A model generated the notes under the pieces. The model was not told where the DNA came from, made no database searches, and was given only the letters and a program-made list of their open reading frames with translations. 64,000 bases of DNA, taken from contig CAYNHV010000002.1 of the NCBI GenBank assembly GCA_964397315.1, positions 23,167 to 87,166 of the forward strand. The letters are read 5' to 3'. The translations under genes and the position numbers were made by a program. Within the stretch, counting starts at the first letter, position 1; the number at the start of each line of letters is the position of its first letter. The DNA is from an uncultured Methanosarcinales archaeon. GTDB lineage: Archaea > Nanobdellota > Nanobdellia > Woesearchaeales > UBA12501. Shown here piece after piece: positions 17,486-45,874 of this stretch.

Positions 17486-17569
17486 TTAAATAATTTTCCG
17501 GCTATAAGGGGATAATGCTCTGGCAGTTTTTCTCCAGCCGCTCCAACCATTAAAGAGATGTATTTTTGT

Positions 17570-17925
17570 TGAATCCTCATGGTAATCCATGTCCTTTTAG
17601 TGAGGAAATGTTTAAGTTAGTAATTCCTGGTGCTCCCCTGAGGGATAATAGATTTATGATAATAACTCCTGGTACTTCCCACCCTTACTGCAGAACCAGA
17701 CAGCGGGCTTACTGCTTCTGAAACAGCACAACTTCGCTCTTCTCTTTCCAATAAGCCCGCCCCTTAATTTGCTTGGGTGCGCTCTGGCTGGGGTTTGTGC
17801 TCTCAGGCTGTGTATGGGGGCGGGGAGGCGAGCGAAGCAGTTGTAACTCTGAACATGGCGGCGGCAATGTCAGGAAGATCTGTTATCCCTGGCTTAACCT
17901 GTCTCTTGTGAGCCCTGGCAAACTC
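17570..17925 (+). repeat. Modular intergenic repeat element, copy B (more diverged)
   Basis: Modules present: ataataactcctggtacttcccacccttactgcagaacc...cacaacttcgctcttctctttccaataagcccgcc...gggggcgggg...tgtaactctgaacatggcggcggcaatgtcaggaag. The catatgctta stem is degraded. Lies between the lysA start and the asd stop. Confidence 0.7.
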
Positions 17926-18950: not shown

Positions 18951-18967
18951 TTTCTAGCACCCCTCAA

Positions 18968-19858: not shown

Positions 19859-19905
19859 GCACCTCCGTATGCTTTTTGCTGTGTTTTTTCAGCCTTATTG
19901 CAGGC

Positions 19906-20655: not shown

Positions 20656-20664
20656 TATTCCACC

Positions 20665-21069
20665 TCACTGGATTTCCTTCATGACAGGCATTGTCTCTGT
20701 TGATGCAACGCCCCTTATTGACCTTATGCTGTCAACAAGCCTGTTGGTCTCTTCAAGGCTTCTTGTTTTTATGAAGCATATAATGTCTGATTTTCCCGCC
20801 ACCTCAAGCACGCCGGACGCGCCGAGCTTCTTTATCTCCTCAGCTGTCTTCCTTGTGCTGACACTTGTGCTTGTGCTCACCATTATTACTGAAGATGCCT
20901 GGCCCGCAGTGTCAATGGTGAATCTCTTTATGACTCCCTTTTTTACAAGGCTTCTCACCCTGTTTCTTATGGTGCCCTCTGACACGCCGGCCTCTTCTGC
21001 TATCCTCAGAAAGGGAGTTCTGGAGTTCTCCCTGAGCATTCTGATTATCATCTCATCAGTTGATTTCAT
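20665..21069 (-). CDS. Lrp/AsnC-family transcriptional regulator (start taken at the internal Met; ORF extends to 21180)
   Basis: HTH MIIRMLRENSRTPFLRIAEEAGVSEGTIRNRV plus a C-terminal RAM domain. Located between dapB and lysC. Confidence 0.65.
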   Translation of the reverse strand: MKSTDEMIIRMLRENSRTPFLRIAEEAGVSEGTIRNRVRSLVKKGVIKRFTIDTAGQASSVIMVSTSTSVSTRKTAEEIKKLGASGVLEVAGKSDIICFIKTRSLEETNRLVDSIRSIRGVASTETMPVMKEIQ

Positions 21070-21142
21070 GATTATCTCTCCTGCAACACCCACCCCATAC
21101 ATCTTCCAGCTTAAGTGCTGGATTAGGTTATAAGTTTTTCGC

Positions 21143-22504
21143 TCAGCACTCCCTGCATCCGCATCCTTTTCCGGCAGCACAGGGATTTTCCTCTATAAGC
21201 GCCTTGTGAAGGGCCAGGACAGTGTTGTCAGCATCCTCATCCCCGACAATGAAGCTGAGATTTACCTGGGATGCTCCCTGTGATATCATCTCCACCCTGA
21301 TGTCCTCCATGCCGCAAACAGTAAATATTTTTCCCGCCACTCCGGGCAGGTGTTTCATGCCTTTTCCTATGACGCAGATTATCGCCATGTCCTCCTTCAC
21401 CTCAACCTTGCCTATTCTTTCAATCTCCTCAACAGCATGGCTGAGATTTTCCGTATTGTCCACAGTGACTGAGACTGAGACCTCTGAGGTTGATATCATG
21501 TCAATGATAATCCTGTGCCTGTTGAATATCTCAAACACCCTTGCCAGGAAGCCGTGGGCTCCAAGCATTCTTGAGGACACTATTCTCATTATTGTCACAT
21601 TCTTTTTTGAGGAGACTGCCTTGAACACCTCCTGCTTCTCCGGCTTTTTTCTTATGACTGTTCCCTGATGGCCGTGGTTGTGGGTGTTCATCACAACAAC
21701 AGGGATATCCTTCTCCATCGCAGGAAGGAGTGTTTTCGGATGCACAACCTTGGCTCCGAAGTAGGCCAGCTCTGATGCCTCTGCGAATGATATCTCCCTT
21801 ATTGATCTCGCGTTTTCAACAATCTTAGGGTCTGCGCTCATTATTCCGTCAACATCAGTCCATATCTGTATCTCCTCTGCCCCTATCGCAGCTCCCAGCA
21901 CTGAGGCAGTGAGGTCTGACCCTCCCCTTCCAAGGGTGGTGATGTCTCCCCTGCGGTCTTTTGCAATGAATCCTGTCACCACATTGACTATTCCCTTTTC
22001 AGCAAGCAGGGAGTTCTTCTTCAGGCTTTCGTAAGTGCAGCTCTCAATCCCTGCATCAGTGGATCCGGAGTCTGTCCTGAATCCTATGTCATAGGCGGCA
22101 AGGGCCCTTGAGGTTATGCCCTCTTTTGAGAGGAAAGCGGCAACTATCCTGGAGGACATTCTCTCCCCGAATGACTGCACAAGGTCAAGCATCCTCTTGT
22201 TCAGCCCGCTCTCTGAGATCTCTGCAAGCGCTTCCCTGAGTTCCCTGAGCTCGCTGTCCACCAGCCCCTGCTCAAGGCCAAGCTCCCTTATTATTCTGCT
22301 GTGTTTCTCCTCAATTTCTGAGCAGTCCGCCTTTCCCTTTTCAGCCTGCCTGGCCTCGCTTATGAGCATGTCAGTGGTGCCTCCTGTTGCTGACACCACC
22401 ACTATTGGATTCCTGTCAAGCCTGGAGCTTATGATGTCCCTGACATTCTTTATTGATTCTGCGCTGCCTACAGAAGTCCCCCCAAACTTCATGACTATTG
22501 CCAT
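21143..22504 (-). CDS. lysC: Aspartate kinase
   Basis: N-terminal MKFGGTSV; amino-acid kinase fold; two C-terminal ACT domains; 453 aa. Confidence 0.9.
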   Translation of the reverse strand: MAIVMKFGGTSVGSAESIKNVRDIISSRLDRNPIVVVSATGGTTDMLISEARQAEKGKADCSEIEEKHSRIIRELGLEQGLVDSELRELREALAEISESGLNKRMLDLVQSFGERMSSRIVAAFLSKEGITSRALAAYDIGFRTDSGSTDAGIESCTYESLKKNSLLAEKGIVNVVTGFIAKDRRGDITTLGRGGSDLTASVLGAAIGAEEIQIWTDVDGIMSADPKIVENARSIREISFAEASELAYFGAKVVHPKTLLPAMEKDIPVVVMNTHNHGHQGTVIRKKPEKQEVFKAVSSKKNVTIMRIVSSRMLGAHGFLARVFEIFNRHRIIIDMISTSEVSVSVTVDNTENLSHAVEEIERIGKVEVKEDMAIICVIGKGMKHLPGVAGKIFTVCGMEDIRVEMISQGASQVNLSFIVGDEDADNTVLALHKALIEENPCAAGKGCGCREC

Positions 22505-23716: not shown

Positions 23717-24475
23717 CTAACGCCATCCAGCATACTCCTCTCCTAATTTTTCGCCTCTGAACACTCTTGTTTCTTTCACAATCTTTTTCTTCCTCTCTCC
23801 CAATCCTGATATTGCCTGGCTTATCTCAAGTGTCTTTGATAAGCTGGAGATTTGTTCCATTATATCCTCAAGCCTTTCCTTCGCCAGCTCTGCAAAAGGA
23901 AAACTTACATAAAAGTACTGTTCCTGCTCAATCTTCTCATACTCCATAACATATATATCATGCCATTCAGACTCATAGCCTTTGCAACCATACTCTGACC
24001 TTTCAGTTGTCTCTGTTCCTACTCTCACCTCTGGTCCAAGCTCAAAAGGCTCTTTGTCTATCACCTCATATTTTGACTCAAGCACCTGAAGCAGATAAGG
24101 TATGCTCGCTTCAGTCTCTGCAATCGATATAAGGCCCTTGTAGACATCACTCTTTAAACCAACCTCACTTTTGATTGCTGAATCGATGTATGGAATCAAA
24201 TCTTCATCAGCATTCCCGCTATTTATCTTTCCGCCCAGCCTGTCAACAACTGTTTCTGGGGTGTCAATACCATATCTCTTATCCTTCCGCAGTATTGTTT
24301 TATGCTTCCTGAAAAGATATTTTACAACATCAACATCACTGCAGTGAGGATCGTCAAGCCTGTCCTCTATGCTTCCCGTCTGTATTCCGAAGAATCTTCC
24401 ATTTCCAAAGAGTTTCTTTTTTGGTTTGATTATGTTTATTGTTGGCATTATTATCCCCCCTAATGTTTCCATCAT
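23717..24475 (-). CDS. Hypothetical protein (252 aa)
   Basis: ORF whose start overlaps the stop of the upstream 289-aa gene by 4 nt. No recognisable motifs. Confidence 0.45.
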   Translation of the reverse strand: MMETLGGIIMPTINIIKPKKKLFGNGRFFGIQTGSIEDRLDDPHCSDVDVVKYLFRKHKTILRKDKRYGIDTPETVVDRLGGKINSGNADEDLIPYIDSAIKSEVGLKSDVYKGLISIAETEASIPYLLQVLESKYEVIDKEPFELGPEVRVGTETTERSEYGCKGYESEWHDIYVMEYEKIEQEQYFYVSFPFAELAKERLEDIMEQISSLSKTLEISQAISGLGERKKKIVKETRVFRGEKLGEEYAGWR

Positions 24476-25341
24476 TTTGCGAAATATTCAGCAATCGCAT
24501 AGACTGCTCCAGATGCTGCTCCTGCAATCGCAAGCCCTGTAAGAGTTGCTTTGATTGGATGCAGTCTTGCCCAAATCTTTATATTAGGATAACCCAGTTC
24601 ATAGCCTGCTCTTTTGATAGCTTCATCAAGAGAGGTTATATCTCGTAAGTTTCCACCATATATCTTTTTCAGATGCTCTTCATCAAGCTTTGTCCCTCGC
24701 ATGAGCTCGTCAACAAGGAACTGGTCGCCTTTCTTCAGATAAATGCTCAAGATCTCTCTTGTCAGATTATCCTCAACTGTCCTGTAAAGCATTTCCATGT
24801 CCTTTGTTGCTTTTTCAACTCTGGGTATGTTCTCTTCTATTGGCTCGTCCTTGAAATCATCGATTGTTACCAATTCGCCTGTGACTCTGTGGTAAGGCTT
24901 CATATTGAAGTCATGGGTCCATACAGGCCCAACATACTCCTCATGCTCTCCGACCTTGACTTTTTTAGTTATAGGCGGCCTCATTTCTGAAGATAATTTT
25001 TCAACCCATGTTTTTAGGTCAGAATAAAGTTCTTCCTTAGGCATTTTCAGGGCTTTTCCTGCAGCATATCTTGCGCTGTACCAATCAGATGAATTATACA
25101 TCTGCTTCAGTTCAGCTTTTGCTTTTTCTCTTGTTTCTATGTCTGGTTTTGTAACATCTGGTGTGCCTTCAATATAAACATCTATTATTGTATCACAAGA
25201 GCCTCCTCTTGTACCTACATGATCTTCTTTCCAGTAACCTTCTGTTCCTTTTTCAACTGAAATAATTGCAGACAAATCTCTTCTCAGAGCTTCAACTGCC
25301 TTCAAATTATTTTCCAAAGTATTCTGGTCTTCTTTCCCCAT
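24472..25341 (-). CDS. Hypothetical protein with a C-terminal TM anchor (289 aa)
   Basis: C-terminal hydrophobic helix LTGLAIAGAASGAVYAIAEYF; overlaps both neighbouring genes. Confidence 0.45.
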   Translation of the reverse strand: MGKEDQNTLENNLKAVEALRRDLSAIISVEKGTEGYWKEDHVGTRGGSCDTIIDVYIEGTPDVTKPDIETREKAKAELKQMYNSSDWYSARYAAGKALKMPKEELYSDLKTWVEKLSSEMRPPITKKVKVGEHEEYVGPVWTHDFNMKPYHRVTGELVTIDDFKDEPIEENIPRVEKATKDMEMLYRTVEDNLTREILSIYLKKGDQFLVDELMRGTKLDEEHLKKIYGGNLRDITSLDEAIKRAGYELGYPNIKIWARLHPIKATLTGLAIAGAASGAVYAIAEYFAK

Positions 25342-25765
25342 CTCTATCCTCTCCGCATCTTTTCAAATGATTCAAAACATAAAGCTCTGGATTCACATGA
25401 TATCTTGCCACTTCCTGCTGTATTATTTCTGTGTCTCTAAAACGCCTGTAAAAGCTTGCCGCAATCTTCTTTGCTCTATGCCCTGAGAAAATCTCATTAA
25501 CAATTGTGCTTGAAGTCCCTTCTTTCAGATCGATCTCATACACTATGACCTGTGAATCTCCATCAATCCCTTCCTTAAAATCTCCGAATTCAACAAGATA
25601 AGACAGCTCTGAATTCCCCCTCAGTGCGTGCGCCATAAGAAACTCCTTTGTCTGGTACACCTGCTCTTTTCCCGTATGCCTCACTGGAACAAACTTGTCC
25701 TCTCTCCCATTATTCTTTTTATCCAGTATTACATCTATTATTTTTTTCAGGTTTTCATCTGTCAT
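25307..25765 (-). CDS. Hypothetical protein (152 aa)
   Basis: First structural gene of the cluster, 12 nt downstream of the Lrp-family gene. Confidence 0.45.
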   Translation of the reverse strand: MTDENLKKIIDVILDKKNNGREDKFVPVRHTGKEQVYQTKEFLMAHALRGNSELSYLVEFGDFKEGIDGDSQVIVYEIDLKEGTSSTIVNEIFSGHRAKKIAASFYRRFRDTEIIQQEVARYHVNPELYVLNHLKRCGEDRDGERRPEYFGK

Positions 25766-26217: not shown

Positions 26218-27324
26218 TCAGTCCATCTTGTGATAAAAGTCATTGACTTCCTGTTCTGCAGTCTTTCCTATAAAGCCAAAGCCGTCAAGGTCTCTCATGT
26301 CCCAATGAGTGTCCCAGAAGTATATTCCGGCACACCAATCCTGGTTGAAGAACGCTTCCAGCATTGCATTATAGCAGTCTGCCTGCTCCTGCTCATCAAC
26401 ATCTCTTGTAGAAGCCTCCCAAGGCGTTATGTTTGAGCCGTCATAACTCTGATAGCCCACTTCAGTTATCATTATCTGTTTTCCATTCAATTCAGAAAAA
26501 TCCTTGAGCTCCTGAGCCACTCCCTGCACAGCTGTCTCCAACTGCTCAGGTGTTGGATCAAAACTGGATGTCAGTGGAAAATATGCATCAACACCAATAT
26601 AATCCACTTTTTCCCAGAAAGGCACATCCTGATAACTGTCCCAATTTGCTCCATAAACAATCTCTCCTGAATAGACATCTCTTACATTGTCAATTATATC
26701 ATTCCATTCCGGCCTTTGCTCTGTTCCTGAAAGCTCTGTTCCAATAACAAGAACATCAACACCATTTGCCTCTGCAATCTCTGCATAATGCATTATGAAA
26801 TTGTTGTAGTTTTCAAACCATGCTGCCCAGTCTGCCTCATTGTCAAAGCTTATCTGGCCTCTCCATCCTGACAATGGATCCACATGAGGCTTTAGAACAG
26901 TCCTTAATCCTCTTGATTTGACATCCGCAATGACATCCTCAAGGCCTGAATCAAGAGGGGTCTTTGTTGCATCAGAGTATATCTCTGTGGAGGTAGGTGT
27001 TTCCTGGTACCATGTTGTCAATAAGGATATTGATTCAACTCCCAATGAGCATAGCTTATCAAGCGTATTTCCTATATTGCTGTTGAGATAGTCATTGTAC
27101 CACCATGATGTCAGGTTGATGCCTTCATGCATGTTAAGATTCTTTATAGGATCCTCTGGTGGTGGAGGCAGCTCAAGAGGGTCATAATCTTCCTGAGTCT
27201 GGCTTTTGCCTGAATCTGAACCTGCGCTTCCTCCTCCGCAGGCCGGCGCAAATGCAAGATTAAGAGCAAGCGCTCCTGCACAAACATATTTTGATAAATT
27301 CTTTACTTTTTTTGACGAACTCAT
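26218..27324 (-). CDS. Secreted clan GH-A glycoside hydrolase lipoprotein (GH5/GH113-like beta-mannanase fold)
   Basis: Lipobox ...LAFAPACGG. Catalytic acid/base region VIGTELSG (NEP-like) and nucleophile ITEVGYQS. 368 aa. Confidence 0.65.
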   Translation of the reverse strand: MSSSKKVKNLSKYVCAGALALNLAFAPACGGGSAGSDSGKSQTQEDYDPLELPPPPEDPIKNLNMHEGINLTSWWYNDYLNSNIGNTLDKLCSLGVESISLLTTWYQETPTSTEIYSDATKTPLDSGLEDVIADVKSRGLRTVLKPHVDPLSGWRGQISFDNEADWAAWFENYNNFIMHYAEIAEANGVDVLVIGTELSGTEQRPEWNDIIDNVRDVYSGEIVYGANWDSYQDVPFWEKVDYIGVDAYFPLTSSFDPTPEQLETAVQGVAQELKDFSELNGKQIMITEVGYQSYDGSNITPWEASTRDVDEQEQADCYNAMLEAFFNQDWCAGIYFWDTHWDMRDLDGFGFIGKTAEQEVNDFYHKMD

Positions 27325-30403: not shown

Positions 30404-30474
30404 TATACCAGTATATCTTTTTAGAAATATTTATATATTTCTGATGACTGATTTGCTGATGGGAGTGGAAATAT

Positions 30475-31410
30475 ATGAAACGCAAAGTTATCAAGCAGGG
30501 AAACGGCACTCTGACAATTACTCTTCCTAAAGCGTGGACTGAGAAGGTTGGGTTGACTGGAGAGAGTGAGGTTGAGATACAAGAAAGAAAGAACGGTCTG
30601 ATTGTTGGATTTTCTGACCATAAGAAAAGAACAAAGGAATTTAGAATCAACCTTACAAAAGAAGAGCTCGCTGATGAAAGATACATTGAGGCTCATCTTA
30701 ACAGTCTTTATATCTCAGGGCATGACAAGATAATAATCAATCTTCCAGACAAAAAAGGCATCAATAAGATCCAGCCTATTGTTAAAAGTAATTTTCTTGG
30801 ATATGACATTTCCAGTTCTGATAGCAACAAGTGCATAATTGATAACATATCCAATCCCAGTGGGGAGAAATTTGACACAATCCTTAGAAGGATATTTCTT
30901 ATGACCAAGAGGCTGTTTGAAGACTTTTTTTCTGATGTTGAATCTAGGAAATTCAACAATCTGGAGTTCCACAAGGACCAGGCAAACACCATGAAAGCCT
31001 ATTCAAACTACTGCTTGAGAATAATTTCAAACAGGACTCCGAGCTATAGCTCTGATTTCGCCTTATGGTCTATTGTATTAAGGGCTACCCACATATACCA
31101 AATGTTGATATACTGTTATGTTAGACTCCCACACTACAAGTTTGATATCTCAAAAGAGACACAGAAATTCTTTAATGACATAATAAATTTATTCGACCTT
31201 GTCTATGCGCTCTTTTATGAATATGACATCTCAAAAACAAAGGAGATCCATGATAGGTATTACAACGCAGTATACCCTGCTTTCTATAAGAAGCTTCTGT
31301 CAAAAAAAGGAGGTGAGGCTTTCCTTGTTTTTCATCTTGGTAAAGCAATAAGGCAGATATTATATATAACTCAATTCACAATAGCTTACAACACTAGCCA
31401 AAGTGATTAA
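30475..31410 (+). CDS. AbrB/SpoVT (swapped-hairpin) N-domain fused to a PhoU-like domain
   Basis: MKRKVIKQGNGTLTITLPKAWTEKVGL is the AbrB/MazE-type motif. The helical C-terminal domain resembles archaeal PhoU homologues. Confidence 0.5.
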   Translation: MKRKVIKQGNGTLTITLPKAWTEKVGLTGESEVEIQERKNGLIVGFSDHKKRTKEFRINLTKEELADERYIEAHLNSLYISGHDKIIINLPDKKGINKIQPIVKSNFLGYDISSSDSNKCIIDNISNPSGEKFDTILRRIFLMTKRLFEDFFSDVESRKFNNLEFHKDQANTMKAYSNYCLRIISNRTPSYSSDFALWSIVLRATHIYQMLIYCYVRLPHYKFDISKETQKFFNDIINLFDLVYALFYEYDISKTKEIHDRYYNAVYPAFYKKLLSKKGGEAFLVFHLGKAIRQILYITQFTIAYNTSQSD

Positions 31411-33361
31411 GGAATTCTTCTTCAAGCTCCATTGCACTCTGATATCTTTCTTCTGGCTTAGCCCAACAATTCTGGACAATACCAATTAATTTCTCAGGCA
31501 TTACATTTTCAAGATTCCAACAAAGAAGCTCCCTATGCAGCTTATTAATTTTAAGATTGTACATCTTGAGTTCATACTCATCTCTTTCAGGACCAGGGGT
31601 CATAGGTCTTCTGGTTTTCTCAAGAACAAAAGGATACTTCTCTTTCCACATCCAATAGATTAAACAGCCTAAAGAAAATACATCACAATAAAACCCCCTA
31701 TCTGACCCTTGCTCATGTAATTCTGGGGCACGGATATAAACATGACCTATACTCATAAAAGAATCTTTTAATCCCTCATTGAGCTGTTCCACTGTTTGAC
31801 CTAGACCAAAGTCTCCTAATTTAACAATCAAACCACCCTCTACTTCCTGGTAGAATATGTTGTCTGGCTTTATATCAGAATGTATAACTCCATTTTTATG
31901 AGAGTAAGAGACTGCACTTAAAACCATTCCCAATAAAGCCAATCTATGCTCATCCTGAAAATTAGCGCCATACAAGTTATACATTTGTGTAAGATCCCCA
32001 TCACAATACTCAGACACACCATACTCTTCCCCTGTATTTTGGTCTATGTTTAAGTCAAATAAGCATATGTGAGGGTGCCTCAGATTGAATGGGGACGCAA
32101 GATTATCACGTTCCATTATTGACCGTAAAGTCAATCCTTTATCATCCATAAATGCTTTGATTCTCGTGTTTACACTATACCTGTACACAACAACTTTATT
32201 GCCAAACTTTGTTGCTTCATAAGCCATCTTTGCCCCACCAACACCTAATCTCCTTTTAAATTCAAATGGAGGTATGTTTTGTGAGGCAACATCCCATATC
32301 TCTCCCTCATCACCAATACTGCCTTCATCCAGAAGTCTTGCAATGTTTCTCAGGAATAAATAACCTTCATTCTCAATATAATAATTCCCAACATACCTCC
32401 AAATCAGATAATCTTTATTGAAAGATGAGGAGTTTTCCATTATTTTCTCAGCATAAGGAATATTTTCCTTTACATACTCTTTAAACTCATCAAAATTTAA
32501 ACCAGAGAGGGATTCTCTCTGAATAATGAAATAATCTTTATCCATAATATCCTTCAAGAAACCTGGAAGCTCCTGTATATACCTGAAAGTGTCACCCCAC
32601 TCTTCATTAAAAGCCAAACCAATTTTATCCAATACTTTTCTTCTTTCTAGAGGGTCTTTCTCATTGAATGATGACAATATATCAATATCTCTCATCTTAA
32701 TCATTCCGTTTATTTTATGCATAATCAAGTGATAATACCTCTCAAAGATAACCATATCAAACTCAGGGGCGTGGTCTATTTTGCTATTATAACATTCGCC
32801 TTTTACATTCCTTCGGTCATATGCCCTACCTTTTCCAGGAAAGTCACCTTCTCTTTTAAGGAAATCAAAGTTGAGTGCAGAATGATATTTGATAAACTCC
32901 AATAAAGGATCAGATTCACCATATGCATTACAACTGTAAAGCTTGTTTAAGTCATAATCCAGTAGGAGATCCCACTCTCTCACTTCAAACCTCTCAATTC
33001 TTCTCTCACCCTGAGATGCTTCACTTATCAATTGCTTAAAATCAATTGAATCGGGCCTTTTTCCATCAGGCCTGAACCAGTAATTGTAGAACTCACACAT
33101 ATGATGGATATCCTTGTTGTGCCTTAAAGCAAGATTTAATTCTTGATATATAGGATTTATATTAGAGCTTAAGTCAAAAATTTCTTGAAGTCTTTTCTCA
33201 ATATTCAAAAGTAGTCTGTTAGGATCTTCCTCAAGAAGTTCGTCTAGGGCTATGTCTCTTTCTTTCAAAGCAAGATTATCTTTGGCAGACATATCCCTAT
33301 CTTTAGAGCATTCTGCTCCAATATCATCGTTTTGTGCGGTCTTATCTGTAATTTTTACCAC
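31394..33361 (-). CDS. Ser/Thr protein kinase with a ~380-aa uncharacterised N-terminal region
   Basis: Gly-rich loop LGVGGAKMAYEA, catalytic loop HSDIKPDN, KLGDFGLG (DFG) and RAPE motifs. Start overlaps the NACHT gene stop by 7 nt. Confidence 0.8.
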   Translation of the reverse strand: MVKITDKTAQNDDIGAECSKDRDMSAKDNLALKERDIALDELLEEDPNRLLLNIEKRLQEIFDLSSNINPIYQELNLALRHNKDIHHMCEFYNYWFRPDGKRPDSIDFKQLISEASQGERRIERFEVREWDLLLDYDLNKLYSCNAYGESDPLLEFIKYHSALNFDFLKREGDFPGKGRAYDRRNVKGECYNSKIDHAPEFDMVIFERYYHLIMHKINGMIKMRDIDILSSFNEKDPLERRKVLDKIGLAFNEEWGDTFRYIQELPGFLKDIMDKDYFIIQRESLSGLNFDEFKEYVKENIPYAEKIMENSSSFNKDYLIWRYVGNYYIENEGYLFLRNIARLLDEGSIGDEGEIWDVASQNIPPFEFKRRLGVGGAKMAYEATKFGNKVVVYRYSVNTRIKAFMDDKGLTLRSIMERDNLASPFNLRHPHICLFDLNIDQNTGEEYGVSEYCDGDLTQMYNLYGANFQDEHRLALLGMVLSAVSYSHKNGVIHSDIKPDNIFYQEVEGGLIVKLGDFGLGQTVEQLNEGLKDSFMSIGHVYIRAPELHEQGSDRGFYCDVFSLGCLIYWMWKEKYPFVLEKTRRPMTPGPERDEYELKMYNLKINKLHRELLCWNLENVMPEKLIGIVQNCWAKPEERYQSAMELEEEFLNHFG

Positions 33362-36081
33362 ACCCGATCAGGATCTATTCCATGGTATGTCTTAAAAGCA
33401 ACATGTGCATGAGAGTCGCTTCTGTCTATCATGCATCTAAGCAAGATATCTGAATATGGATTAAATTTAGCTTCCCTAATAAGAAGCTCCCTATGCCTAA
33501 AATCTTTGTCTTTTATTAGATCAATTATCAACTCAACAATCTCTGGTCTATTGCTTTCTCCATGAACACTTTCCATAACCAGTTCCTTTAGTATCTTGGG
33601 CTCATCAATATTTGAATCAATCTGCAAAGACCTAAAATAATGCACTCTATTTGAATTATGAGCTCTTAATATCTCTCTGTCCTCTTCAGAAACAAATTTA
33701 GGGGGCCTCATAATCAGGTTTCTAACACCCATATCAACTCTATATGGGCTATTGCCTCGCATAATATATTCACCTGCAAAATCTAATGCTTCTTTATGCC
33801 CACTCATCATCAATATTGTCTGAAAAGCAATATCTCTATGAGGATCTTTGTCATCCTCAACAATCTCTTTTAATAGTGGAAAATAATTGATAACACCCAA
33901 ATATTCAATCAATATGTCTCTTGCTCTGCTTTTATAGTCCTTCAGATACCCTGCAATGAAATCAAAAGCCTTCTTCTGGCAAGTTCTTCTCTTTTCTACT
34001 GAAAGAAGCAGAATAGATGTAGTTTCATGTGTATCTTTAACCATGGAATCAAAATAATGGGGGTTGTTTTCATCAGTAAATAAATTGATTTTATCATCCA
34101 ACTGTCCATTTAATGCAGCCTCTGCATCTTTATTGCCATAACTGGCCAAAAGCTCAAAAGCCTTCTCTGATACGTAATCACAATAGGGGGACTCTTTATT
34201 AGGCATGATCTTATCCAAAAAAGCAAGAGCTTTATCAGTTCCAAGATTCCATAACATTAAAACAAATTCATCATCAAGTTTAAACTTATTAAAATTTACA
34301 TCATTCATTGAGTGAACTTTATGTTTTTTATGTTTTAAATCAAGATCATCAAGTGACATAATAGGAATAATAGGAGTTAGTTTATCATAGAAAATCTCAG
34401 ATCCATCAGGAAATTTTTGATAATAACCCCACCCTCCTTTATATTCATATAACCTATGGTATTCTTCATTCTCAATAAGAATGCCCACCATTCTCTCAAT
34501 AAGATCTCCTGCATTATCATCTTTAGAAGCTATATTAAGCGCAGCCTGAACCAACCCAGGATGTACATCCCCCTTATCTAATATGGATTCAATAGCTCTT
34601 ATAAATTTCTTTGTATTAACTTCACTCTTTGAATGTCTGACCAATTCTGAAGCAAATGAGAAGTCTATATCATCTTTGTATTCTCCTGCGACAAAATCAC
34701 AAAGATCATTCAATTCTTTTGTATCCAACATTTCTGATAGGAACAATAAAACTTCTTTATGCCTATAAAACTTGAAGTCTTCATCATCATCTAAGTATTT
34801 CTCAAATACTTCCTGAGCAGAAAGGCCATCTTTTTTAAGTCTTCTTGCAAACCATCCTGCACAAAAGTATTCCTGCAAAGTCTTATGCATAAAATTAACT
34901 TCAACATACTCAGAGGCAGTGCTCTTTTTTATAGTTGGATGATGAAAATTCCTTGTCTTTTCCCCTAAGACCCTACATAAACCGCTCTCATCTATTGAAT
35001 TCAAGATTTCATCTAAAGGCCAATCAGAGAACTTTTTCTGCAGTAAAGGCCTTATTGAATGCCCTGTGACCTCTGCAAAAAATTTATCATACACTTTACC
35101 ATGCCAATCCTTTTTAATAACCATTTCCTTCGGCTTTTCCAGAATATAGGCTATCTCTTCCATAACTTCTAATTCATCAGAAAAATCTTTTGGAGAATCA
35201 TCACCATTTCTTTCAGCAATCTTCAAGGCTTCTCTGGCAAGGAATCTTTTATTCACAACAACCTTATATAATAATGCCCTGTTCCCAAAGTCAAATTTCT
35301 TGTAGTCTTTTTTGTCAATATCCATTACAAAACTCAATAGCAATGGATATCTGCAGAAGTCCAGAAGATTCTCGTCCTCCTTTATAAGTTCAAAAAGTTC
35401 TGATCTTCCTTTTGCAACAAGATAGTTTTTTAAATCATCTAATTGAACTGGCTGAACATCATATACCTCAAAATCTGTGAGTTTTGGGGTGTCAATTTCT
35501 GGCCTGCTTGATACAATGAACCTATTATTCTCCAAACCCTTAAGATTGTCCAGTTGCTTAACAAGCCTTAACCTTAATGAACCATCAGTGACCTCATCAA
35601 AACCATCCAAATATATATTAAACTTTCCTGCTCTCAACAAATCTTTTATAGCCCACTTAAAATCACTAAAACCAATTGTTTCTAAAATAAACTTTTCCAG
35701 ACTCTGCCCAGCGTATGACTTTAAATCAATATATATAGAATCTTTATGTCCAAAATAGCTTCTCTTTAGAAAGGTGGTCTTTCCTGTTCCAGCATCCCCT
35801 GACAACCAGATTTTGGACTCAGACTCTGCTATCTCTTCAAGAAGCCTGATTTCCCATTCATATTTTTTCTGCACCTGAATTGGAAGCAGGTGATCATCAA
35901 ATAAAACAGATTCTTCTGCCTGCTTTTTTAAGTCTCTATGTTTTGCATCTGAAAGTAATGAGATAAATTCATTTGCTGGATCAGCAAGCTTATGAAGGAT
36001 TTCATTACAAGGAATCCTAGAATCAAGATTTTCTTCTGTGATATTAAAATCAGCCACCATAATTGCCCCCTCAAACCTCAA
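33355..36081 (-). CDS. STAND-class NTPase (NACHT domain) with a C-terminal helical-repeat region
   Basis: Walker A LSGDAGTGKTTFL, Walker B IYLDGFDEV (hhhhDGxDE) and a C-terminal ~450-aa alpha-repeat region. 908 aa, in an AT-rich region. Confidence 0.8.
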   Translation of the reverse strand: MRFEGAIMVADFNITEENLDSRIPCNEILHKLADPANEFISLLSDAKHRDLKKQAEESVLFDDHLLPIQVQKKYEWEIRLLEEIAESESKIWLSGDAGTGKTTFLKRSYFGHKDSIYIDLKSYAGQSLEKFILETIGFSDFKWAIKDLLRAGKFNIYLDGFDEVTDGSLRLRLVKQLDNLKGLENNRFIVSSRPEIDTPKLTDFEVYDVQPVQLDDLKNYLVAKGRSELFELIKEDENLLDFCRYPLLLSFVMDIDKKDYKKFDFGNRALLYKVVVNKRFLAREALKIAERNGDDSPKDFSDELEVMEEIAYILEKPKEMVIKKDWHGKVYDKFFAEVTGHSIRPLLQKKFSDWPLDEILNSIDESGLCRVLGEKTRNFHHPTIKKSTASEYVEVNFMHKTLQEYFCAGWFARRLKKDGLSAQEVFEKYLDDDEDFKFYRHKEVLLFLSEMLDTKELNDLCDFVAGEYKDDIDFSFASELVRHSKSEVNTKKFIRAIESILDKGDVHPGLVQAALNIASKDDNAGDLIERMVGILIENEEYHRLYEYKGGWGYYQKFPDGSEIFYDKLTPIIPIMSLDDLDLKHKKHKVHSMNDVNFNKFKLDDEFVLMLWNLGTDKALAFLDKIMPNKESPYCDYVSEKAFELLASYGNKDAEAALNGQLDDKINLFTDENNPHYFDSMVKDTHETTSILLLSVEKRRTCQKKAFDFIAGYLKDYKSRARDILIEYLGVINYFPLLKEIVEDDKDPHRDIAFQTILMMSGHKEALDFAGEYIMRGNSPYRVDMGVRNLIMRPPKFVSEEDREILRAHNSNRVHYFRSLQIDSNIDEPKILKELVMESVHGESNRPEIVELIIDLIKDKDFRHRELLIREAKFNPYSDILLRCMIDRSDSHAHVAFKTYHGIDPDRVW

Positions 36082-36211
36082 AATAAAGTAAGGATATCTG
36101 ATTATATAAATCTTTCTATTAATTCACCCTCAAAAAGTAGCAAATAACCCGTCAATCAGAACCAAAAATATCGATAAGAACAGACAAGAACATAGGAAAA
36201 ATCACAATGAC

Positions 36212-36622
36212 TCAATAAGCCTCTAATTCCCCAGTCACCTTGTCTATCCTCCTCTCGCTCTCCGGCCCTATTCCAACGCATGTAACAGTTCCCGATTTCA
36301 CAACAGTCTTTCCAGCATCAGCAATCTCAACAGCAACAAGGTCATTCTCATGCGCAAGTTTCTTGTATCTATTTAACTCATCCAAATCCTTAACCCTGAG
36401 AACAACCTTCATCATGCCAGTGTCTTTCCATTTATTGACGAGCTCCTTCCTGCCTGTTGACTGAGACTCCAGGACTGCAGAGACAGAAGCGTGAGCAGCC
36501 TGAGCAGCCATCTTGCCCTTGGGCAGCTTAAGGTCCTCCCTGACTATTATAGCCTGCTTGTACCTGCTCCTGTCCGCAGCTCCGGCAATGGCTTTCTTTA
36601 TCCTGTTAACAACAGATTTCAT
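36212..36622 (-). CDS. pth2: Peptidyl-tRNA hydrolase, archaeal/eukaryal type
   Basis: KQAIIVREDLKLPKGKMAAQAAHAS...VVLRVKD...VEIADAGKT is the Pth2 signature; 136 aa. Confidence 0.85.
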   Translation of the reverse strand: MKSVVNRIKKAIAGAADRSRYKQAIIVREDLKLPKGKMAAQAAHASVSAVLESQSTGRKELVNKWKDTGMMKVVLRVKDLDELNRYKKLAHENDLVAVEIADAGKTVVKSGTVTCVGIGPESERRIDKVTGELEAY

Positions 36623-37686
36623 CTTTGCTTGTCTCTCCTTGGAAGGTATCTGGGCTCAACAAGGTCAGGTATCCTGTCAATGAACCTCGCGTAATACACG
36701 CTGACCTTGCCGTAATAAAGCCTGTCAATGCTGTATTTCTTTAAATAGTTTTTGACCTTGAAATAACCATTGAGGTACTTGTAATCCTTTGTCAGCCCCC
36801 CATGCTGAGACGTATCTGACAATCCCCTTTTTGCCCTGACTGTTATCCTCCACGCCTTGTCCCTGCTGAAGTGGGTCTTCATCCTGTTGTATACCTCTCT
36901 GAATGAATGGTCCTGGGCAAGGTGGACTGCCACAACCCTTCCTGCGTAAACCCTTAAAGTGCCCTTGCTGAGAACCCCTGCTTTCTCCTCATTCACTGCA
37001 GCAAGGCCCTCCTCTGTCTCAAGATAGCCTGGCAGGCCGGATGCAAACACCCTGTATGGCTGCAGCATGCCGTTCTCATACCTCAAAACATGGGTGCCTA
37101 TCTCATGGGCTATGAGGCGCCTTATGAAATCGTTGGAGAACATCTTGCCCTTCTTGAGCAGCACCCTTCTCTTTGACTGCTGCACAGCAGCATTGGCAGT
37201 CATCAGCTTCTGCCTTACCTCCCAGTTGAAGCCGTAAACCTTCAGGGCCTCCCTGAGCATATCAGCCACTTCCTTGGGGGACAGTTTCGCGGACTTCTTC
37301 TGCCCCTCTCTGTAGCGCAGTATCCTTCTTGCTTTTTTCACCAGAGTCCTGCCGGGCCTGCCGTAAACCTTCAGGGAGCTGGCCTTGAAATCCTCAGAGC
37401 CTACTGAGCCGAGCATGTTAAGGGTTCTCACGTAGCTGTCCCTCTTGTGCCTTAGAATCTGGCCCACATAGCTCCTCTTCATCTTCAGCGAATCAAGCCT
37501 GCTTATTGCAGCATCAATGTTGATCCTGGGAGGGGAATACCTGAATATCGGCTCGTAAGACCTGCTTGAAAAGAATTTCTTTCTCTCCTTCCACTCATTG
37601 ACAGGGTTTACTGCGAGAAAGGATATCCTTCTTCCTATCCTGTACAGCTCCCTGTCAACCTCTTTAAGTATAACCTTCTTTGCCAT
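36619..37686 (-). CDS. DUF1704-family (QEGLA-motif) putative metallopeptidase
   Basis: IAHEIGTHV (HExxH-like) and TEEGLAAV (QEGLA-like) motifs. Start set at the internal Met (MAKKVILKE); the ORF extends to 37758. Overlaps pth2 by 4 nt. Confidence 0.55.
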   Translation of the reverse strand: MAKKVILKEVDRELYRIGRRISFLAVNPVNEWKERKKFFSSRSYEPIFRYSPPRINIDAAISRLDSLKMKRSYVGQILRHKRDSYVRTLNMLGSVGSEDFKASSLKVYGRPGRTLVKKARRILRYREGQKKSAKLSPKEVADMLREALKVYGFNWEVRQKLMTANAAVQQSKRRVLLKKGKMFSNDFIRRLIAHEIGTHVLRYENGMLQPYRVFASGLPGYLETEEGLAAVNEEKAGVLSKGTLRVYAGRVVAVHLAQDHSFREVYNRMKTHFSRDKAWRITVRAKRGLSDTSQHGGLTKDYKYLNGYFKVKNYLKKYSIDRLYYGKVSVYYARFIDRIPDLVEPRYLPRRDKQR

Positions 37687-37739
37687 GCTGATTTTAGTGT
37701 GATAATATGTATTTAAATGTTGCTTTAGGAAGAGGGTTT

Positions 37740-38400
37740 GTTTATGATTATGATTCATGGTGCTTCCCTGGAAATGGAAAAATTATGATTATTATCCCAG
37801 GTGCTTTCCGCTATTTAGAGAATTTGCTTGTGTTTATGATTCCAGATTCCACCCTCCCTTAGGTTTGTTTATTATTATGATTCCTGGTGCTTCCCTGGGA
37901 ATATTGAGTTTATGATTGTTACTCCAGGTGCTTCCCAGAGGGGTAATGGGTTTGCGATTATTATTCCTGGTAATTCCCACCCTCTGGAAGATAATGTTTT
38001 TATGGTTATAATTCATAGTACTTCCCTCCCTTTCTCCAGAACCATCAGGCAGGTTTTTTCCTTCTGGAACAGCACAACTCTCTGCTTCCGCCTCCAATAA
38101 GCCCACCCAATCATATGCTTAAAGCGCTCTGTGTGGGTTGGTGCGCTCAAGCTGTTGAAGGGGGCGGTGGGTGGGTCAAAGCGGCTGTAACTGCGAGTGG
38201 GGGTGGAGGATAAGTCTGGATTAATCACAATATTTAGAGGAGACTCAATTTTGTAGTACTCATACGCTTAAAGCGCGCTTTTTGTGGAATTTCACTGCGC
38301 TCACTCCCACCTGCGCGTGAACTGCGCAATGCCGTTCTGGTGGAGAAATAAGAAGGATTTATTATATTCATAAAACTAAATTCAGAGGGAGTTAACAATA
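37740..38400 (+). repeat. Modular intergenic repeat element, copy C
   Basis: About seven tandem degenerate units (gtttatgattatgattcatggtgcttccctgg...). Core ccaataagcccacccaatcatatgcttaaagcgctctgtgtgggttggtgcgctcaagctgttgaagggggcgg at 38094..38165, then ggctgtaactgcg...ctggattaatc...cgcgtgaactgcgcaatgccgttctggtggagaa. Immediately upstream of corA. Confidence 0.8.
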
Positions 38401-43749: not shown

Positions 43750-44700
43750 ATGATTCACGAAAAGATCAAGAAAACAATCCTTGAGAAAGAAGACCCTTTC
43801 ACAGACATAATAGGCCAGGGGGATGTCAAGAACGGCCTGAGGTCAGCACTGCTCACAGGCAGGAATGTGATAATAGTCGGGCCTGCGGGAGTGGGAAAGA
43901 CAACCCTTGCAAAGAACATAGCAAAGCTTCTTCCCTCCAAGAAGGGAGGGATTAATTTTGTGAGGATACAGGGCTCGCCTGACCTTACAGTGGAGGACCT
44001 CATGGGGGATATTGATCCCATAAAAGCTCTAAAGTTCGGGCCCACAAGCAGGGAGGCTTTCACCCCTGGAAAGATATTCAGGGCTGACAAGGGAGTTCTC
44101 TTTTTTGACGAGCTTAACAGGTGCCCTGAGAAGCTGCAGAACGCAATGCTCCAGGCCCTTGAGGAAAGGAATGTCACTCTTGGGGGTTATGATGTTGATT
44201 TTGAGGCTGACTTCATATTTATAGGCACAATGAACCCTGAGGACACCAGCACTGAGAAGATGAGTGACGTCCTGCTTGACAGGTTTGACGTTCTCTACAT
44301 GAGACACCCTGAAAGCCCTGAGACAGAGAGGGAGATAGTTGAGCAGAAGGCAAAAAAGCTTGATGTTAGAGTGCCGGACAGCATAACAGATTTTATAGTG
44401 CTTTTTGTGAGGACAGTGAGGGACAGCAATGATCTTGAGAAGAAGCCGGGAGTGAGGGCCAGCATGGGCCTTTATGAGAGGGCCCAGTCAAACGCAGTGC
44501 TCAAAGGCAAAAAGGAAGCTGATCATGAGGATGTTGAGGAGGCCATAATATCAGTGCTGAGCCACAGGATAAAGCTGAAGCCTTCCATACAATACCTCAA
44601 GTCCCCTGAAGACTTTGTAAAGGAGGAGCTGAAGAGGTTCAGGAAGGAGAAGGCAAAAGGCGGGCGGGAATCCAAAAGCAAACCGGGTGGTGGCCCGTAA
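43750..44700 (+). CDS. MoxR-family AAA+ ATPase
   Basis: Walker A GPAGVGKTT, Walker B LFFDELNR and sensor regions; 316 aa. Confidence 0.85.
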   Translation: MIHEKIKKTILEKEDPFTDIIGQGDVKNGLRSALLTGRNVIIVGPAGVGKTTLAKNIAKLLPSKKGGINFVRIQGSPDLTVEDLMGDIDPIKALKFGPTSREAFTPGKIFRADKGVLFFDELNRCPEKLQNAMLQALEERNVTLGGYDVDFEADFIFIGTMNPEDTSTEKMSDVLLDRFDVLYMRHPESPETEREIVEQKAKKLDVRVPDSITDFIVLFVRTVRDSNDLEKKPGVRASMGLYERAQSNAVLKGKKEADHEDVEEAIISVLSHRIKLKPSIQYLKSPEDFVKEELKRFRKEKAKGGRESKSKPGGGP

Positions 44701-45874
44701 CACACAGCAAAAGACTTCTGAACTTGAGAGCGCTGAGGAGCTCAGGGGAAAGCTCGGCATGCAGAACATGGATGATAAGCTCATGCGCTCTGTGATGGAG
44801 GCTGACAAGAGCGCGATTGACAAGGGAAAGCTTGTTGAGGCGGGCCTTGACATGGGAATAAGCGCTTTCACCCCTGAGCTGATATTTGACCAGATGGCTA
44901 AGGATTACAGGCTTGCTGAGCATCTGTACGGCCAGACGATCATAAGGGAGCTTTTCGGAGAGGAGCCTGACTATATCAGCAAGAACATCCAGATACCAGA
45001 ATACAGGAAGCTGCTGAAGGACAAGCTGAAGACACGGCTCAAGCAGCTCTCTGATGAGGGCATAATTGACAGGGGGTTCAGCATAACAGAGAAGGGCATT
45101 GAGCTGGCGTCTCTTGTGATGTACACTGAGGAGCTGGACAATCTCGTGCCAAAAGGCATTGCAGGGGAGAGGCTGCACAAGAAGAAGTCCCAGTACGGCG
45201 GAAGGGATGAGATAAGGGACTTCACCATGGGTGACAGGTACAGGGATATCGCCCTGAAGAGAAGCCTGAAGACATCCATAAGGAGAGGGCATGAGAAGTT
45301 AAGGCCGGAGGACCTGCGGATATTTGAGAGGCAGAGCAAGGGCAAGTGCTTCATTGTCTATGCTCTTGACGCGTCAGGCTCAATGAGAGGGGAAAAGATC
45401 ACATCATGCAAGAAAGCAGGCATAGCCCTGGCTTACAAGGCTGTGTCAAACAAGGACAGGGTGGGCCTCATAGTTTTTGGCGAGAAGATAAAGGCAAGGG
45501 TTGATCCCACAGGGGATTTCAGCAGGCTGCTGAAGGAGATGGTGAGGATTAGGGCATCAAAAAGGACGGACATTGTGAGGACAATAAGGGAGAGCGTGGA
45601 GATGTTTCCCTCATCTGATGCCACAAAACACCTCATACTATTAAGTGACGCCCTGCCGACCACTGGAAGCAGGCCTGAGAATGAGACTGTGGAGGCTGCG
45701 GGAGTTGCGGCAAACGCGGGCATAACAATATCTGTCGTAGGAATAAACCTGAACAGGAAGGGCGAGGAGCTCGCAAGGAAAATAGCTGATGTGGGAAAGG
45801 GAAAGCTTTATTCTGTGAGGAATCTTGAGAGCATTGACAAGATCATACTTGAGGATTACCATAGTGTGGCATGA
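44687..45874 (+). CDS. VWA-domain protein partnered with MoxR
   Basis: The C-terminal VWA domain begins CFIVYALDASGSMRGEK (MIDAS DxSxS). Start overlaps the MoxR stop. Confidence 0.75.
   Translation: MVARNTQQKTSELESAEELRGKLGMQNMDDKLMRSVMEADKSAIDKGKLVEAGLDMGISAFTPELIFDQMAKDYRLAEHLYGQTIIRELFGEEPDYISKNIQIPEYRKLLKDKLKTRLKQLSDEGIIDRGFSITEKGIELASLVMYTEELDNLVPKGIAGERLHKKKSQYGGRDEIRDFTMGDRYRDIALKRSLKTSIRRGHEKLRPEDLRIFERQSKGKCFIVYALDASGSMRGEKITSCKKAGIALAYKAVSNKDRVGLIVFGEKIKARVDPTGDFSRLLKEMVRIRASKRTDIVRTIRESVEMFPSSDATKHLILLSDALPTTGSRPENETVEAAGVAANAGITISVVGINLNRKGEELARKIADVGKGKLYSVRNLESIDKIILEDYHSVA

Follow-up and report, generated by a model that had tools for sequence, protein, structure and literature searches.

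What does a NACHT-type STAND NTPase (signal transduction ATPases with numerous domains) do beside a separately encoded protein kinase in a genome-reduced archaeon? The question is raised by a 64,000-nucleotide (nt) stretch of DNA from an uncultured archaeon that GTDB places in the Woesearchaeales (assembly GCA_964397315.1, contig CAYNHV010000002.1, positions 23,167 to 87,166). We refer to this whole stretch as the window. It contains a gene for a NACHT-type NTPase that is followed by an overlapping gene for a Hanks-type Ser/Thr kinase. We propose that the locus is a lineage-specific signaling cassette of DPANN (Woesearchaeota-type) archaea, in which a sensor that resembles nucleotide-binding leucine-rich repeat receptors (NLRs) acts through a kinase. 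On balance, we think that this explanation is probably correct, with conflict or immunity as the most likely role. It starts from observed features: the domain identities of the two proteins, the conservation of the pair, a fused form, the coupling of the genes, and the conservation of the promoter.

Conservation of the gene pair

The pair and the gene next to it lie at these positions of the window:

33355..36060, minus strand: NACHT-type STAND NTPase gene; 901 amino acids (aa), with the open reading frame (ORF) open back to a TTG at 36081
31394..33361, minus strand: partner Ser/Thr kinase gene (P0003); 655 aa, GTG start
30475..31410, plus strand: gene for an AbrB/MazE/SpoVT-type DNA-binding protein; 311 aa, convergent to the kinase gene

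The original prediction, which was made from the letters of this DNA alone, was that the NTPase and kinase genes are both on the minus strand and overlap by 7 nt. We confirmed this in the sequence. The GTG start of the kinase gene overlaps the stop codon of the NTPase gene (GTG-TGG-TAA / G-TGG-TAA), and the 7-nt overlap holds only with this start; the next ATG, which is an alternative start, is at 33292. The NTPase was predicted to have 908 aa, which is the length of the ORF if it is counted from the TTG (33355..36081). The ORF is as described, but the protein more likely starts at the ATG at 36060 and has 901 aa, because the public NCBI annotation (P0001) uses this ATG, a Shine-Dalgarno-like GAGGGGG lies 6 nt upstream, and a transcription factor B recognition element with a TATA box (BRE/TATA) lies about 45 nt upstream.

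To find relatives, we ran an exhaustive HMMER search with the NTPase against 1.84 billion representative proteins, which gave 339 hits. Only four of these are close relatives. Three are strong matches: P0123 (E = 4e-49), P0124 (E = 1e-29), and P0125 (E = 7e-26). The fourth, P0143, matches on the nucleotide-binding domain (NBD) with E = 3.6e-9, and we recognized it as close by its architecture and its gene context. In word-indexed searches both proteins of the pair looked like orphans, and the one with the NTPase returned only the protein itself and one weak match; the close relatives came from the exhaustive search. They lie in four loci:

L003, a metagenome-assembled genome (MAG) named Nanoarchaeota archaeon: NACHT gene, gene for a 651-aa kinase (11-nt overlap), convergent AbrB-type gene
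L005, a metagenome from the European Nucleotide Archive (ENA): NACHT gene, gene for a 576-aa kinase (1-nt gap), convergent AbrB-type gene
L006, a Ca. Woesearchaeota MAG: NACHT gene, gene for a 580-aa kinase (4-nt ATGA overlap), end of the contig
L004, a Logan contig: PTH2 gene, gene for the 917-aa fusion protein P0143, convergent AbrB-type gene

For three of the four close relatives, the kinase gene is directly downstream of the NACHT gene, and each of these kinases has the same N-terminal domain (N-domain) as the kinase in the window. The junctions in L003, L005, and L006 are as close as the one in the window, so the coupling of NTPase and kinase is tight. In L004 the two are fused: the NACHT NBD of P0143 extends to about aa 260, the N-domain spans aa 275-591, and the kinase domain spans aa 586-912. 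This fusion is Rosetta-stone evidence that NACHT protein and kinase are functionally linked. The expectation that a genuine pair would be kept as neighbors in other genomes therefore held up, as the genes are together in L003, L005, and L006 and are joined in L004. Also, the pairwise identities are congruent: for both the NTPase and the kinase, the closest pairs are the window with L003 and L005 with L006. The proteins of the pair are just 18-33% identical between loci, versus 52% for PTH2 (window and L004). These sequence comparisons support the view that the two genes are a dedicated functional pair.

Outside of this family, we did not see the combination. None of the other 148 top NACHT hits (of the 339) has a kinase domain, and there was no kinase in the visible downstream sequence of the distant hits P0126, P0128, and P0002 (loci L002, L019, and L020; the 3.5-kb contig L019 extends only about 150 nt past the NACHT gene). 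Scans of metagenomes with an alignment of the N-domain or of the NACHT protein yielded no further family members, and scans of viral contigs yielded no relatives.

One of the distant loci has a layout of its own. L020 (GCA_053531855.1, 5660-9215) contains a short NACHT gene (425 aa), with DUF1858 upstream as in L003. A gene for a 646-aa protein comes next and overlaps the NACHT gene by 4 nt; the locus adjoins two methyltransferases and an MvaI/BcnI-type endonuclease. We considered whether the 646-aa protein is a diverged kinase and rejected this, as it matches neither the kinase profile nor the N-domain profile.

Identification of the NTPase as a NACHT protein

The NTPase has the following parts:

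35881..36060, minus strand: short conserved N-terminal region, aa 1-60, with the motif L..DP..EF
34471..35880, minus strand: NACHT module, aa 61-530, made up of the NBD, helical domain 1 (HD1), winged-helix domain (WHD), and helical domain 2 (HD2)
35773-35799, minus strand: Walker A, GDAGTGKTT, aa 88-96
35590-35616, minus strand: Walker B, IYLDGFDEV, aa 149-157
35497-35517, minus strand: sensor-1 arginine, IVSSRPE (R186)
34852-34893, minus strand: WHD histidine motif, FMHKTLQEYFCAGW / FMHKTLQEYFCA (H392)
33358..34293, minus strand: C-terminal alpha-helical (HEAT-like) repeats, aa 590-901

The NTPase itself scores 16.9 bits against Pfam's NACHT model (PF05729), which is below the gathering score of 26.7 bits; NACHT and NPHP3_N are both sub-threshold matches at the P-loop. 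The homologs P0123 (27.0 bits), P0126, P0127, and P0128 do pass the NACHT threshold, so the shortfall is a matter of sensitivity. Judging by its motifs, its homologs, and its predicted fold, and not by its own Pfam match, the NTPase is a NACHT protein.

The motifs of the NTPase are collinear with those of the Pfam-positive NACHT protein P0002. Besides those listed above, there is an HD1 motif, RYPLLL (P239). In an alignment of 68 sequences of HMMER homologs, G91, G93, K94, D152, E156, R186, and P239 are invariant and H392 is nearly so. By these motifs the nucleotide switch is complete, with Walker A, Walker B, the sensor-1 arginine, and the winged-helix histidine. An AlphaFold2 (AF2) model that was built on the same alignment has a predicted local distance difference test (pLDDT) score of about 85-95 over much of aa 60-530. 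The best matches of this model in the Protein Data Bank (PDB), according to Foldseek, are NOD2 (5irm, E = 2e-10, 587 columns), NLRC4 (4kxf), and NLRP3 (7zgu), with Avs4 and SAMD9 ranked lower. About 520-600 columns of the model align to NOD2 or NLRC4. Walker A, Walker B, and the C-terminal helical repeats had all been read from the sequence alone, and the motifs and the model bear them out.

The C-terminal repeats (aa 590-901) are modeled as helical hairpins, with a sub-threshold match to HEAT_2. Among the homologs, P0126 matches HEAT_2 with E = 1e-36, and P0125 matches it with E = 4.8e-8, with no separately significant stretch. The repeats are also the most divergent part of the NTPase (18% mean identity, versus 33% for the NBD). 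We presume that they are the sensor region.

As only about 60 residues precede the NBD, the NTPase has no N-terminal effector domain, and neither Pfam nor the AF2 model gave a domain in this part. These residues are conserved in P0123-P0125 (30% mean identity), their AF2 confidence is low, and their motif can be recognized in the fusion protein P0143 as DPNFGF. They are a candidate for a docking surface rather than an effector domain.

Active site of the kinase

The catalytic part of the partner protein has these features:

31397..32266, minus strand: Hanks-type kinase domain, aa 366-655, non-RD
32219-32248, minus strand: glycine loop GVGGAK (aa 372-381), in which G373-V-G375-G-A-K378 is GxGxxK
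32168-32197, minus strand: beta-3 stretch, aa 389-398
31859-31882, minus strand: catalytic loop, HSDIKPDN
31805-31816, minus strand: DFG
31721-31732, minus strand: APE

Pfam's Pkinase model (PF00069) matches aa 367-642 with 92.3 bits (threshold 31.7), and in a fold search the AF2 model of the domain superposes on PknB with a template modeling (TM) score of 0.83. The best matches among PDB sequences are Nek1, CDPK, and MELK. The domain was originally described as the C-terminal third of the protein, and it is actually 44% of it. It was also described as an intact Hanks-type kinase with GxGxxG, HSDIKPDN, DFG, and APE. The last three motifs are there, but the glycine loop reads GxGxxK instead of GxGxxG, and the lysine of the beta-3 VAIK motif is absent, so "intact" is too strong. 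The column of this lysine is occupied by N398 (alignments with MAFFT or phmmer) or by Y395 (hmmalign).

The other residues that are expected in the active site are present: the alpha-C glutamate (E417), D496, K498, N501, D517-F-G, and the glutamate of APE (E547). E417 is invariant in a kinase alignment, and D496, N501, D517, and E547 do not vary among the five kinases of the family. The arginine of HRD is absent from all five, which makes them non-RD kinases. L005 and L006 have lost the histidine of HRD, and the DFG motifs of L003, L005, and L006 are degenerate.

We then compared the position of the lysine across the family. The kinases of L005 and L006 have a beta-3 lysine (VKIK and VKLK), and their glycine loops are GEGADG and GEGAGS. 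The kinases of the window and L004 have Y or L at the beta-3 position, with GVGGAK and GSGAIK as their glycine loops. So only these two members, the ones without a beta-3 lysine, have a lysine in the glycine loop. This covariation is from the alignment of four informative sequences, as the N-lobe of the L003 kinase is too divergent to align. K378 aligns with what we take to be the position of K233 in WNK1 (GRGSFKTVY). Like the WNK kinases, the window kinase lacks the beta-3 lysine and has a lysine in the glycine loop (GxGxxK); it has no specific sequence affinity to them. The alignment suggests that the catalytic lysine was relocated to the glycine loop, in a WNK-like way, which argues against a dead enzyme. 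As L005 and L006 keep the beta-3 lysine, the relocation would have arisen inside this small family, convergently with the WNKs. If so, the family is a small experiment of nature in moving a kinase's catalytic lysine.

N-terminal domain of the kinase

The remainder of the kinase is mostly made up of one domain:

32267..33292, minus strand: family-specific N-terminal domain, aa 24-365, with the motifs FYNYWFRPDGKRPD and E.W/VDVAS..IP

The original prediction was that about 380 aa at the N-terminus have no recognizable domain. The length is closer to 365 aa, and the rest of the statement stands: residues 1-365 have no match in Pfam, NCBIfam, PDB sequences, or a word-indexed search of 5.8 billion proteins. 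(The word-indexed search with the N-domain recovered nothing, not even the query itself.) A profile of the N-domain did not match any PDB sequence either. The domain is common only to the window kinase and the four partner or fused kinases, where its motifs are FYNxxFRPDGxRPD, FLxNLxRL, and ExVExASxxIPxY. We also asked if the N-domain is a copy of the helical part of the NACHT protein and rejected this (hhalign probability 0.8%).

Structure prediction had been suggested both for this domain and for the NTPase repeats. It gave helical hairpins for the repeats, but the model of the N-domain, in which helices are predicted, has pLDDT under 50. The N-domain is likely to be a docking or regulatory part of the kinase. 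At about 340 aa, and being private to this family, it is a candidate for a new protein-protein docking module.

AbrB-type gene and promoters

The third gene of the locus points towards the kinase gene, and the 3' ends of the two genes overlap by 17 nt in the window (4-28 nt across loci). Its product has a MazE_antitoxin domain at aa 6-44 according to Pfam, and the C-terminal part of one ortholog has a weak match to PhoU. A convergent gene of this type lies beside the pair in all four loci where the contig extends far enough (the window, L003, L004, and L005). The first 45 aa of these proteins have 69% mean identity, versus 21% elsewhere. The AbrB-type gene is probably a third member of the cassette, with its position as the basis for a functional link to the pair. 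Genes past the AbrB-type gene were considered as members and rejected, as they are not conserved between loci.

Both transcription units have putative control regions. In the window these are:

36123..36141, minus strand: distal promoter element GCTACTTTTTGAGGGTGAA, conserved before the NACHT gene in four genomes
36103..36117, minus strand: BRE/TATA box AGAAAGATTTATATA for the NACHT-kinase operon, about 45 nt before the ATG at 36060
30423..30437, plus strand: BRE/TATA for the AbrB-type gene, with GTGATATACCAGTATATC before it

The window, L003, L004, and, less well, L006 share some 45 nt of sequence before the NACHT gene, in genomes whose proteins have just 20-30% identity. This block reads AATACYACTWT-N2-G-N2-KGTRAA-N4-7-GAAAGRTTTATAWA and is found at

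36103-36141, minus strand, in the window
1702-1745 in L003
4509-4550 in L004
3650-3690 in L006

The block always precedes the NACHT gene, and the next genes upstream are PTH2, DUF1858, PTH2, and ArsP. Its distal pattern, ACYACTWTNNGNNKGTRAA, has one site in the 64-kb window (0.04 expected) and one in each related locus; since the pattern comes from these very sequences, we rely first on the alignment. The proximal part matches a promoter consensus for the window, which has 9 sites (0.36 expected) and lies upstream of several genes. There is no perfect-consensus promoter between the NACHT and kinase genes, and the sole other match in the region (32678-32692, with two mismatches) is inside the kinase gene. 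We propose that one promoter drives both of the coupled genes. Scans for bacterial-type promoters and terminators gave chance-level counts, as expected for an archaeon.

The region upstream of the AbrB-type gene is conserved as well:

7618-7700, minus strand, in L003
7856-7940, minus strand, in L005
8224-8310, minus strand, in L004
30395-30437, plus strand, in the window

About 75 nt are nearly identical in the three distant genomes L003, L004, and L005, and the window keeps the proximal part only. The block contains GATATATC palindromes, and it is better conserved than synonymous sites in the AbrB-type gene. We rejected the idea that the block is an RNA (no Rfam match, a weak fold, no covariation). 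As there is no Rfam match and no covariation, we read it as a DNA operator region, and the palindromes and conservation suggest that it is probably a multi-site operator. Another candidate was a 16-nt inverted repeat that is common to the NACHT and AbrB promoters. We rejected this as a specific operator because it is the general BRE/TATA consensus.

As defined by these comparisons, the conserved unit is about 5.7 kb and takes in the NACHT and kinase genes with their promoter as well as the convergent AbrB-type gene, which has a promoter of its own. The conserved promoter blocks make the regulation of the cassette testable.

Composition and the question of an island

An AT-rich island at about 28.7-36.1 kb had been noted, along with the suggestion that it was acquired horizontally. 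The first claim holds in part. Composition deviates sharply across 31.4-36.1 kb, but 28.1-31.4 kb is only intermediate, with GC content at third codon positions (GC3) of 0.41-0.48. The NACHT gene (GC 0.345, GC3 0.292) and the kinase gene (GC 0.361, GC3 0.329) have the two lowest values of the 48 ORFs in the window, whose median GC3 is 0.545. L006 shows the same contrast, with GC3 of 0.28-0.31 for the pair and 0.54-0.59 for the flanks. There is no GC contrast in L003 and L005, which have low-GC hosts, and the fusion gene in L004 is slightly below its flanks. Overall, the GC content of the pair is 0.35-0.40 in four of the five genomes, with host GC content of 0.36-0.50.

Horizontal acquisition is weakly supported. 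The pair is AT-rich relative to its flanks, here and in L006, but it lacks mobility genes, repeats, and a nearby tRNA, and it has shared neighbors and a conserved promoter. Specifically, we found no integrase, transposase, or bounding repeats within 27-38.5 kb, and no mobility or boundary features in the related loci. PTH2 is upstream of the pair in two of the five loci (the window and L004). The only tRNA-like match is about 15 kb away (51100-51198, plus strand; Rfam, 99 nt, 30.6 bits, just above the gathering score). ARAGORN did not find a tRNA in the window, and this Rfam match may be an intron-containing archaeal tRNA.

Three other patches of the window are AT-rich (23717-25765, 53258-55231, and 62503-63880); they have GC3 of 0.33-0.41 and ORFs without a Pfam match.

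Across this genome, low GC content seems to go with lineage-specific genes in general. To judge from the sequences, the cassette evolves fast and is lineage-specific, it is not a one-off insertion, and transfer among related archaea is possible.

Proposed mechanism and alternatives

We propose that the cassette works as follows. A trigger would bind the C-terminal repeat region of the NACHT protein and release it from an ADP-locked state; the protein would then exchange its nucleotide and oligomerize. The oligomer would bring kinase molecules together or lift an inhibition by the N-domain. The kinase would then phosphorylate cellular targets, apparently by using K378 in place of the beta-3 lysine. 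Being a non-RD kinase, it may not need phosphorylation of its activation loop. One candidate for a target or a controller is the AbrB-type regulator. By analogy, a role in immunity or conflict (the sensing of viruses or of a symbiotic host) is plausible, and it is our best guess because NACHT-clade proteins of known role are mostly immune or cell-death switches.

Several observations weigh against this proposal. The fusion protein P0143 lacks the WHD and the repeats, so it cannot act as a classical STAND switch, and it may be a decayed copy. The window kinase lacks the beta-3 lysine, and numerous kinase domains of conflict systems have no catalytic activity (PMC7159879). Docking of the kinase N-domain onto the NACHT protein is a prediction: profile comparison did not detect a shared adaptor domain in the two proteins, and the low pLDDT of the N-domain means that there is no confident model of it. 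Version 2.0 of PADLOC, a tool that had been suggested as a check, has no family that matches the NTPase, and its matches to the kinase are generic. The NCBIfam antiphage models do no better with the NTPase (EruA, 15.9 bits against a cut-off of 1000 bits). Instead of a defense island, the flanks contain housekeeping genes, namely those for PTH2, a MATCAP-family peptidase, CorA, MscS, and a DRG-type GTPase, together with the dap operon. Finally, the conservation statistics are from a small sample of five known loci.

The cassette could instead be a regulatory module outside of immunity, in which the NACHT protein senses a metabolite or a host cue, the kinase phosphorylates the AbrB-type protein, and transcription is controlled as part of a housekeeping or symbiosis circuit. 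The convergent and overlapping AbrB-type gene in four of four loci fits this idea, as does the DNA-binding domain of its product, which is, like its upstream region, far more conserved than the rest of the cassette. The flanking core genes (PTH2, MATCAP, CorA, and the dap operon) also fit, and there are no mobility genes and no defense-model match for the NTPase. Moreover, STAND NTPases include the transcription regulators MalT and AfsR. Yet most known roles in the NACHT clade are in immunity or cell death, the pair evolves quickly (18-33% identity, versus 52% for PTH2), and its composition is atypical. No operator is common to the promoter element of the NACHT gene and the region before the AbrB-type gene, and genes in convergent orientation are not co-transcribed. 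We therefore consider a regulatory module to be possible but somewhat doubtful. We are far more skeptical of a system like a toxin-antitoxin pair, with the kinase as a HipA-style toxin, the AbrB/MazE-fold protein as the antitoxin, and the NACHT protein as an accessory. The neighbor does match MazE_antitoxin in Pfam, and the kinase and AbrB-type genes are always adjacent, but the AbrB-type protein has 311 aa and is encoded convergently, so it is not co-transcribed. The kinase is of the Hanks type, not HipA, and it is strictly coupled to the NACHT gene, including in the fusion. A survey of ORFs and Pfam matches found no MazF-like gene at the locus. We give this scheme hardly any credence.

That the pair is a recently acquired defense island, meaning a mobile abortive-infection system from a low-GC donor, would account for its having the lowest GC3 of the 48 ORFs, for the same contrast in L006, and for a GC content that stays at 0.35-0.40 in four of five genomes while the hosts range from 0.36 to 0.50. 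The outer neighbors vary between loci, and the distant relative in L020 sits beside restriction-modification genes. On the other hand, there is no integrase, transposase, or bounding repeat, the only tRNA-like match is about 15 kb off, and no relatives were in the viral contigs that we scanned. The pair has PTH2 upstream in two of five loci and the AbrB-type gene downstream in four of four, and the promoter fits the consensus of the host. Other ORFans in the window are equally AT-rich, so low GC may mark fast-evolving lineage-specific genes, and the GC content of the L004 fusion is only slightly under that of its host. We think that a recent acquisition is unlikely. It is more improbable still that the kinase is a pseudokinase scaffold, which would not transfer phosphate and would be an adaptor or decoy that is bound by the NACHT protein. 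The beta-3 lysine is absent in the window and L004, two members (L005 and L006) lack the HRD histidine, three (L003, L005, and L006) have a degenerate DFG, and the majority of the kinase domains of MoxR-vWA conflict systems are reported to be inactive (PMC7159879). But the catalytic aspartate, the magnesium-binding asparagine and aspartate, and the glutamate of APE are invariant in five of five kinases, the alpha-C glutamate (E417) is present in the window kinase, and the glycine-loop lysine is in exactly those members that lack the beta-3 lysine. The structural model is also that of a regular, active-type kinase fold.

Returning to the sensor-to-kinase cassette, a more specific form of it would be an archaeal counterpart of the animal axis from NLR to kinase, with activation of the kinase in trans through a docking domain, a WNK-like lysine, and a transcriptional response via the AbrB-type protein instead of cell suicide. 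All of these parts together are a long shot. If it were true, there would be a signaling-type innate immune pathway in genome-reduced DPANN archaea. DPANN archaea have small genomes and keep few accessory systems, and, to our knowledge, almost nothing is known about their defenses or how they sense their hosts.

Relation to known systems

In the prokaryotic relatives of NLRs that have been studied, the effector is mostly on the same polypeptide, and the cell is killed or arrested directly. The conserved NACHT-kinase operon would be an NLR-like switch that signals through a separate kinase, which is the logic of NOD-RIPK2. Both NOD1/NOD2-RIPK2 and this cassette have a NACHT receptor without an enzymatic output and a separate Ser/Thr kinase, and NOD2 is the top structural match for the NTPase. 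Non-RD kinases are typical partners of pattern-recognition receptors, and the window kinase is non-RD too. However, we did not detect a CARD or another shared adaptor here, and the NTPase has HEAT-like repeats, not leucine-rich repeats. The kinases are related only by the common kinase fold, so this is an analogy and not homology of the pathways.

The bacterial NACHT (bNACHT) and Avs proteins resemble the NTPase in their central NACHT/STAND switch, repeat-type C-terminal sensor, fast evolution, and patchy distribution. The fold of the NTPase is closest to NLRC4 and NOD2, with Avs4 lower in the list. Those systems are typically a single polypeptide with an N-terminal effector, whereas here the kinase is a separate coupled gene with a private N-domain. 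Also, the host here is a DPANN archaeon, no PADLOC or NCBIfam defense model matches at threshold, and the cassette is known from sequence alone.

It was originally stated that a NACHT protein with a kinase partner had not been described. This is too strong. Pkinase is among the domains that are fused to bacterial NACHT proteins, which defend against phage (bioRxiv 10.1101/2022.07.19.500537), and Ser/Thr/Tyr kinases are effectors in NTPase-centered conflict systems (PMC7159879, PMC8195603). Those conflict systems (Kaur, Burroughs, Iyer, and Aravind 2020/2021) are also similar in that genes for the NTPase and the effector are neighbors (PMC7159879, PMC8195603). More broadly, STAND systems are known to use effectors from separate genes (in trans), which adaptor domains recruit (PMC10907252, PMC8195603). 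The cassette follows a known principle, a STAND NTPase with a separately encoded effector, in an archaeal two-gene form. In the literature that we searched, we found no description of an archaeal NACHT-kinase pair in which the kinase has its own N-domain, and no paper that names both NACHT and Woesearchaeota.

Hanks-type kinases also occur in the defense systems Stk2, PD-T4-6, and MADS (Mad6), and the PADLOC models for these match the kinase domain with E values from 1e-13 to 1e-28. The matches cover the generic kinase domain only, the NCBIfam scores fall well short of the cut-offs of the families (for MAD6, 46 bits against a cut-off of 460 bits), and those systems have neither a NACHT partner nor the N-domain of the window kinase.

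Other genes near the cassette

The window also has an overlapping pair of genes for a MoxR-type AAA ATPase and a vWA protein (43750-45874, plus strand; bpMoxR, 28 bits, just above the threshold). A pairing of MoxR with vWA is the core of described ternary conflict systems too.

At 36619-37758 (minus strand), there is a strong homolog of the MATCAP family (microtubule-associated tyrosine carboxypeptidase; E = 6.5e-56) whose gene overlaps PTH2 by 4 nt. Such a protein is unexpected in a small archaeal genome. The lysine/diaminopimelate cluster at 16205-22504 (minus strand) looks complete, with aspartokinase, DapB, DapA, Asd, and a LysA-type decarboxylase. Such a cluster is of note if the host is a DPANN archaeon, as these are usually poor in amino acid biosynthesis.

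A gene for a glycoside hydrolase of the GH113/GH5 type lies a few kb from the cassette (window 26218-27324, minus strand). In L003 (12437-14757) and L005 (12623-15191), large GH5_mannosidase/beta-helix proteins are encoded at a distance of 5-8 kb. These hydrolase genes may be a remnant of wider synteny.

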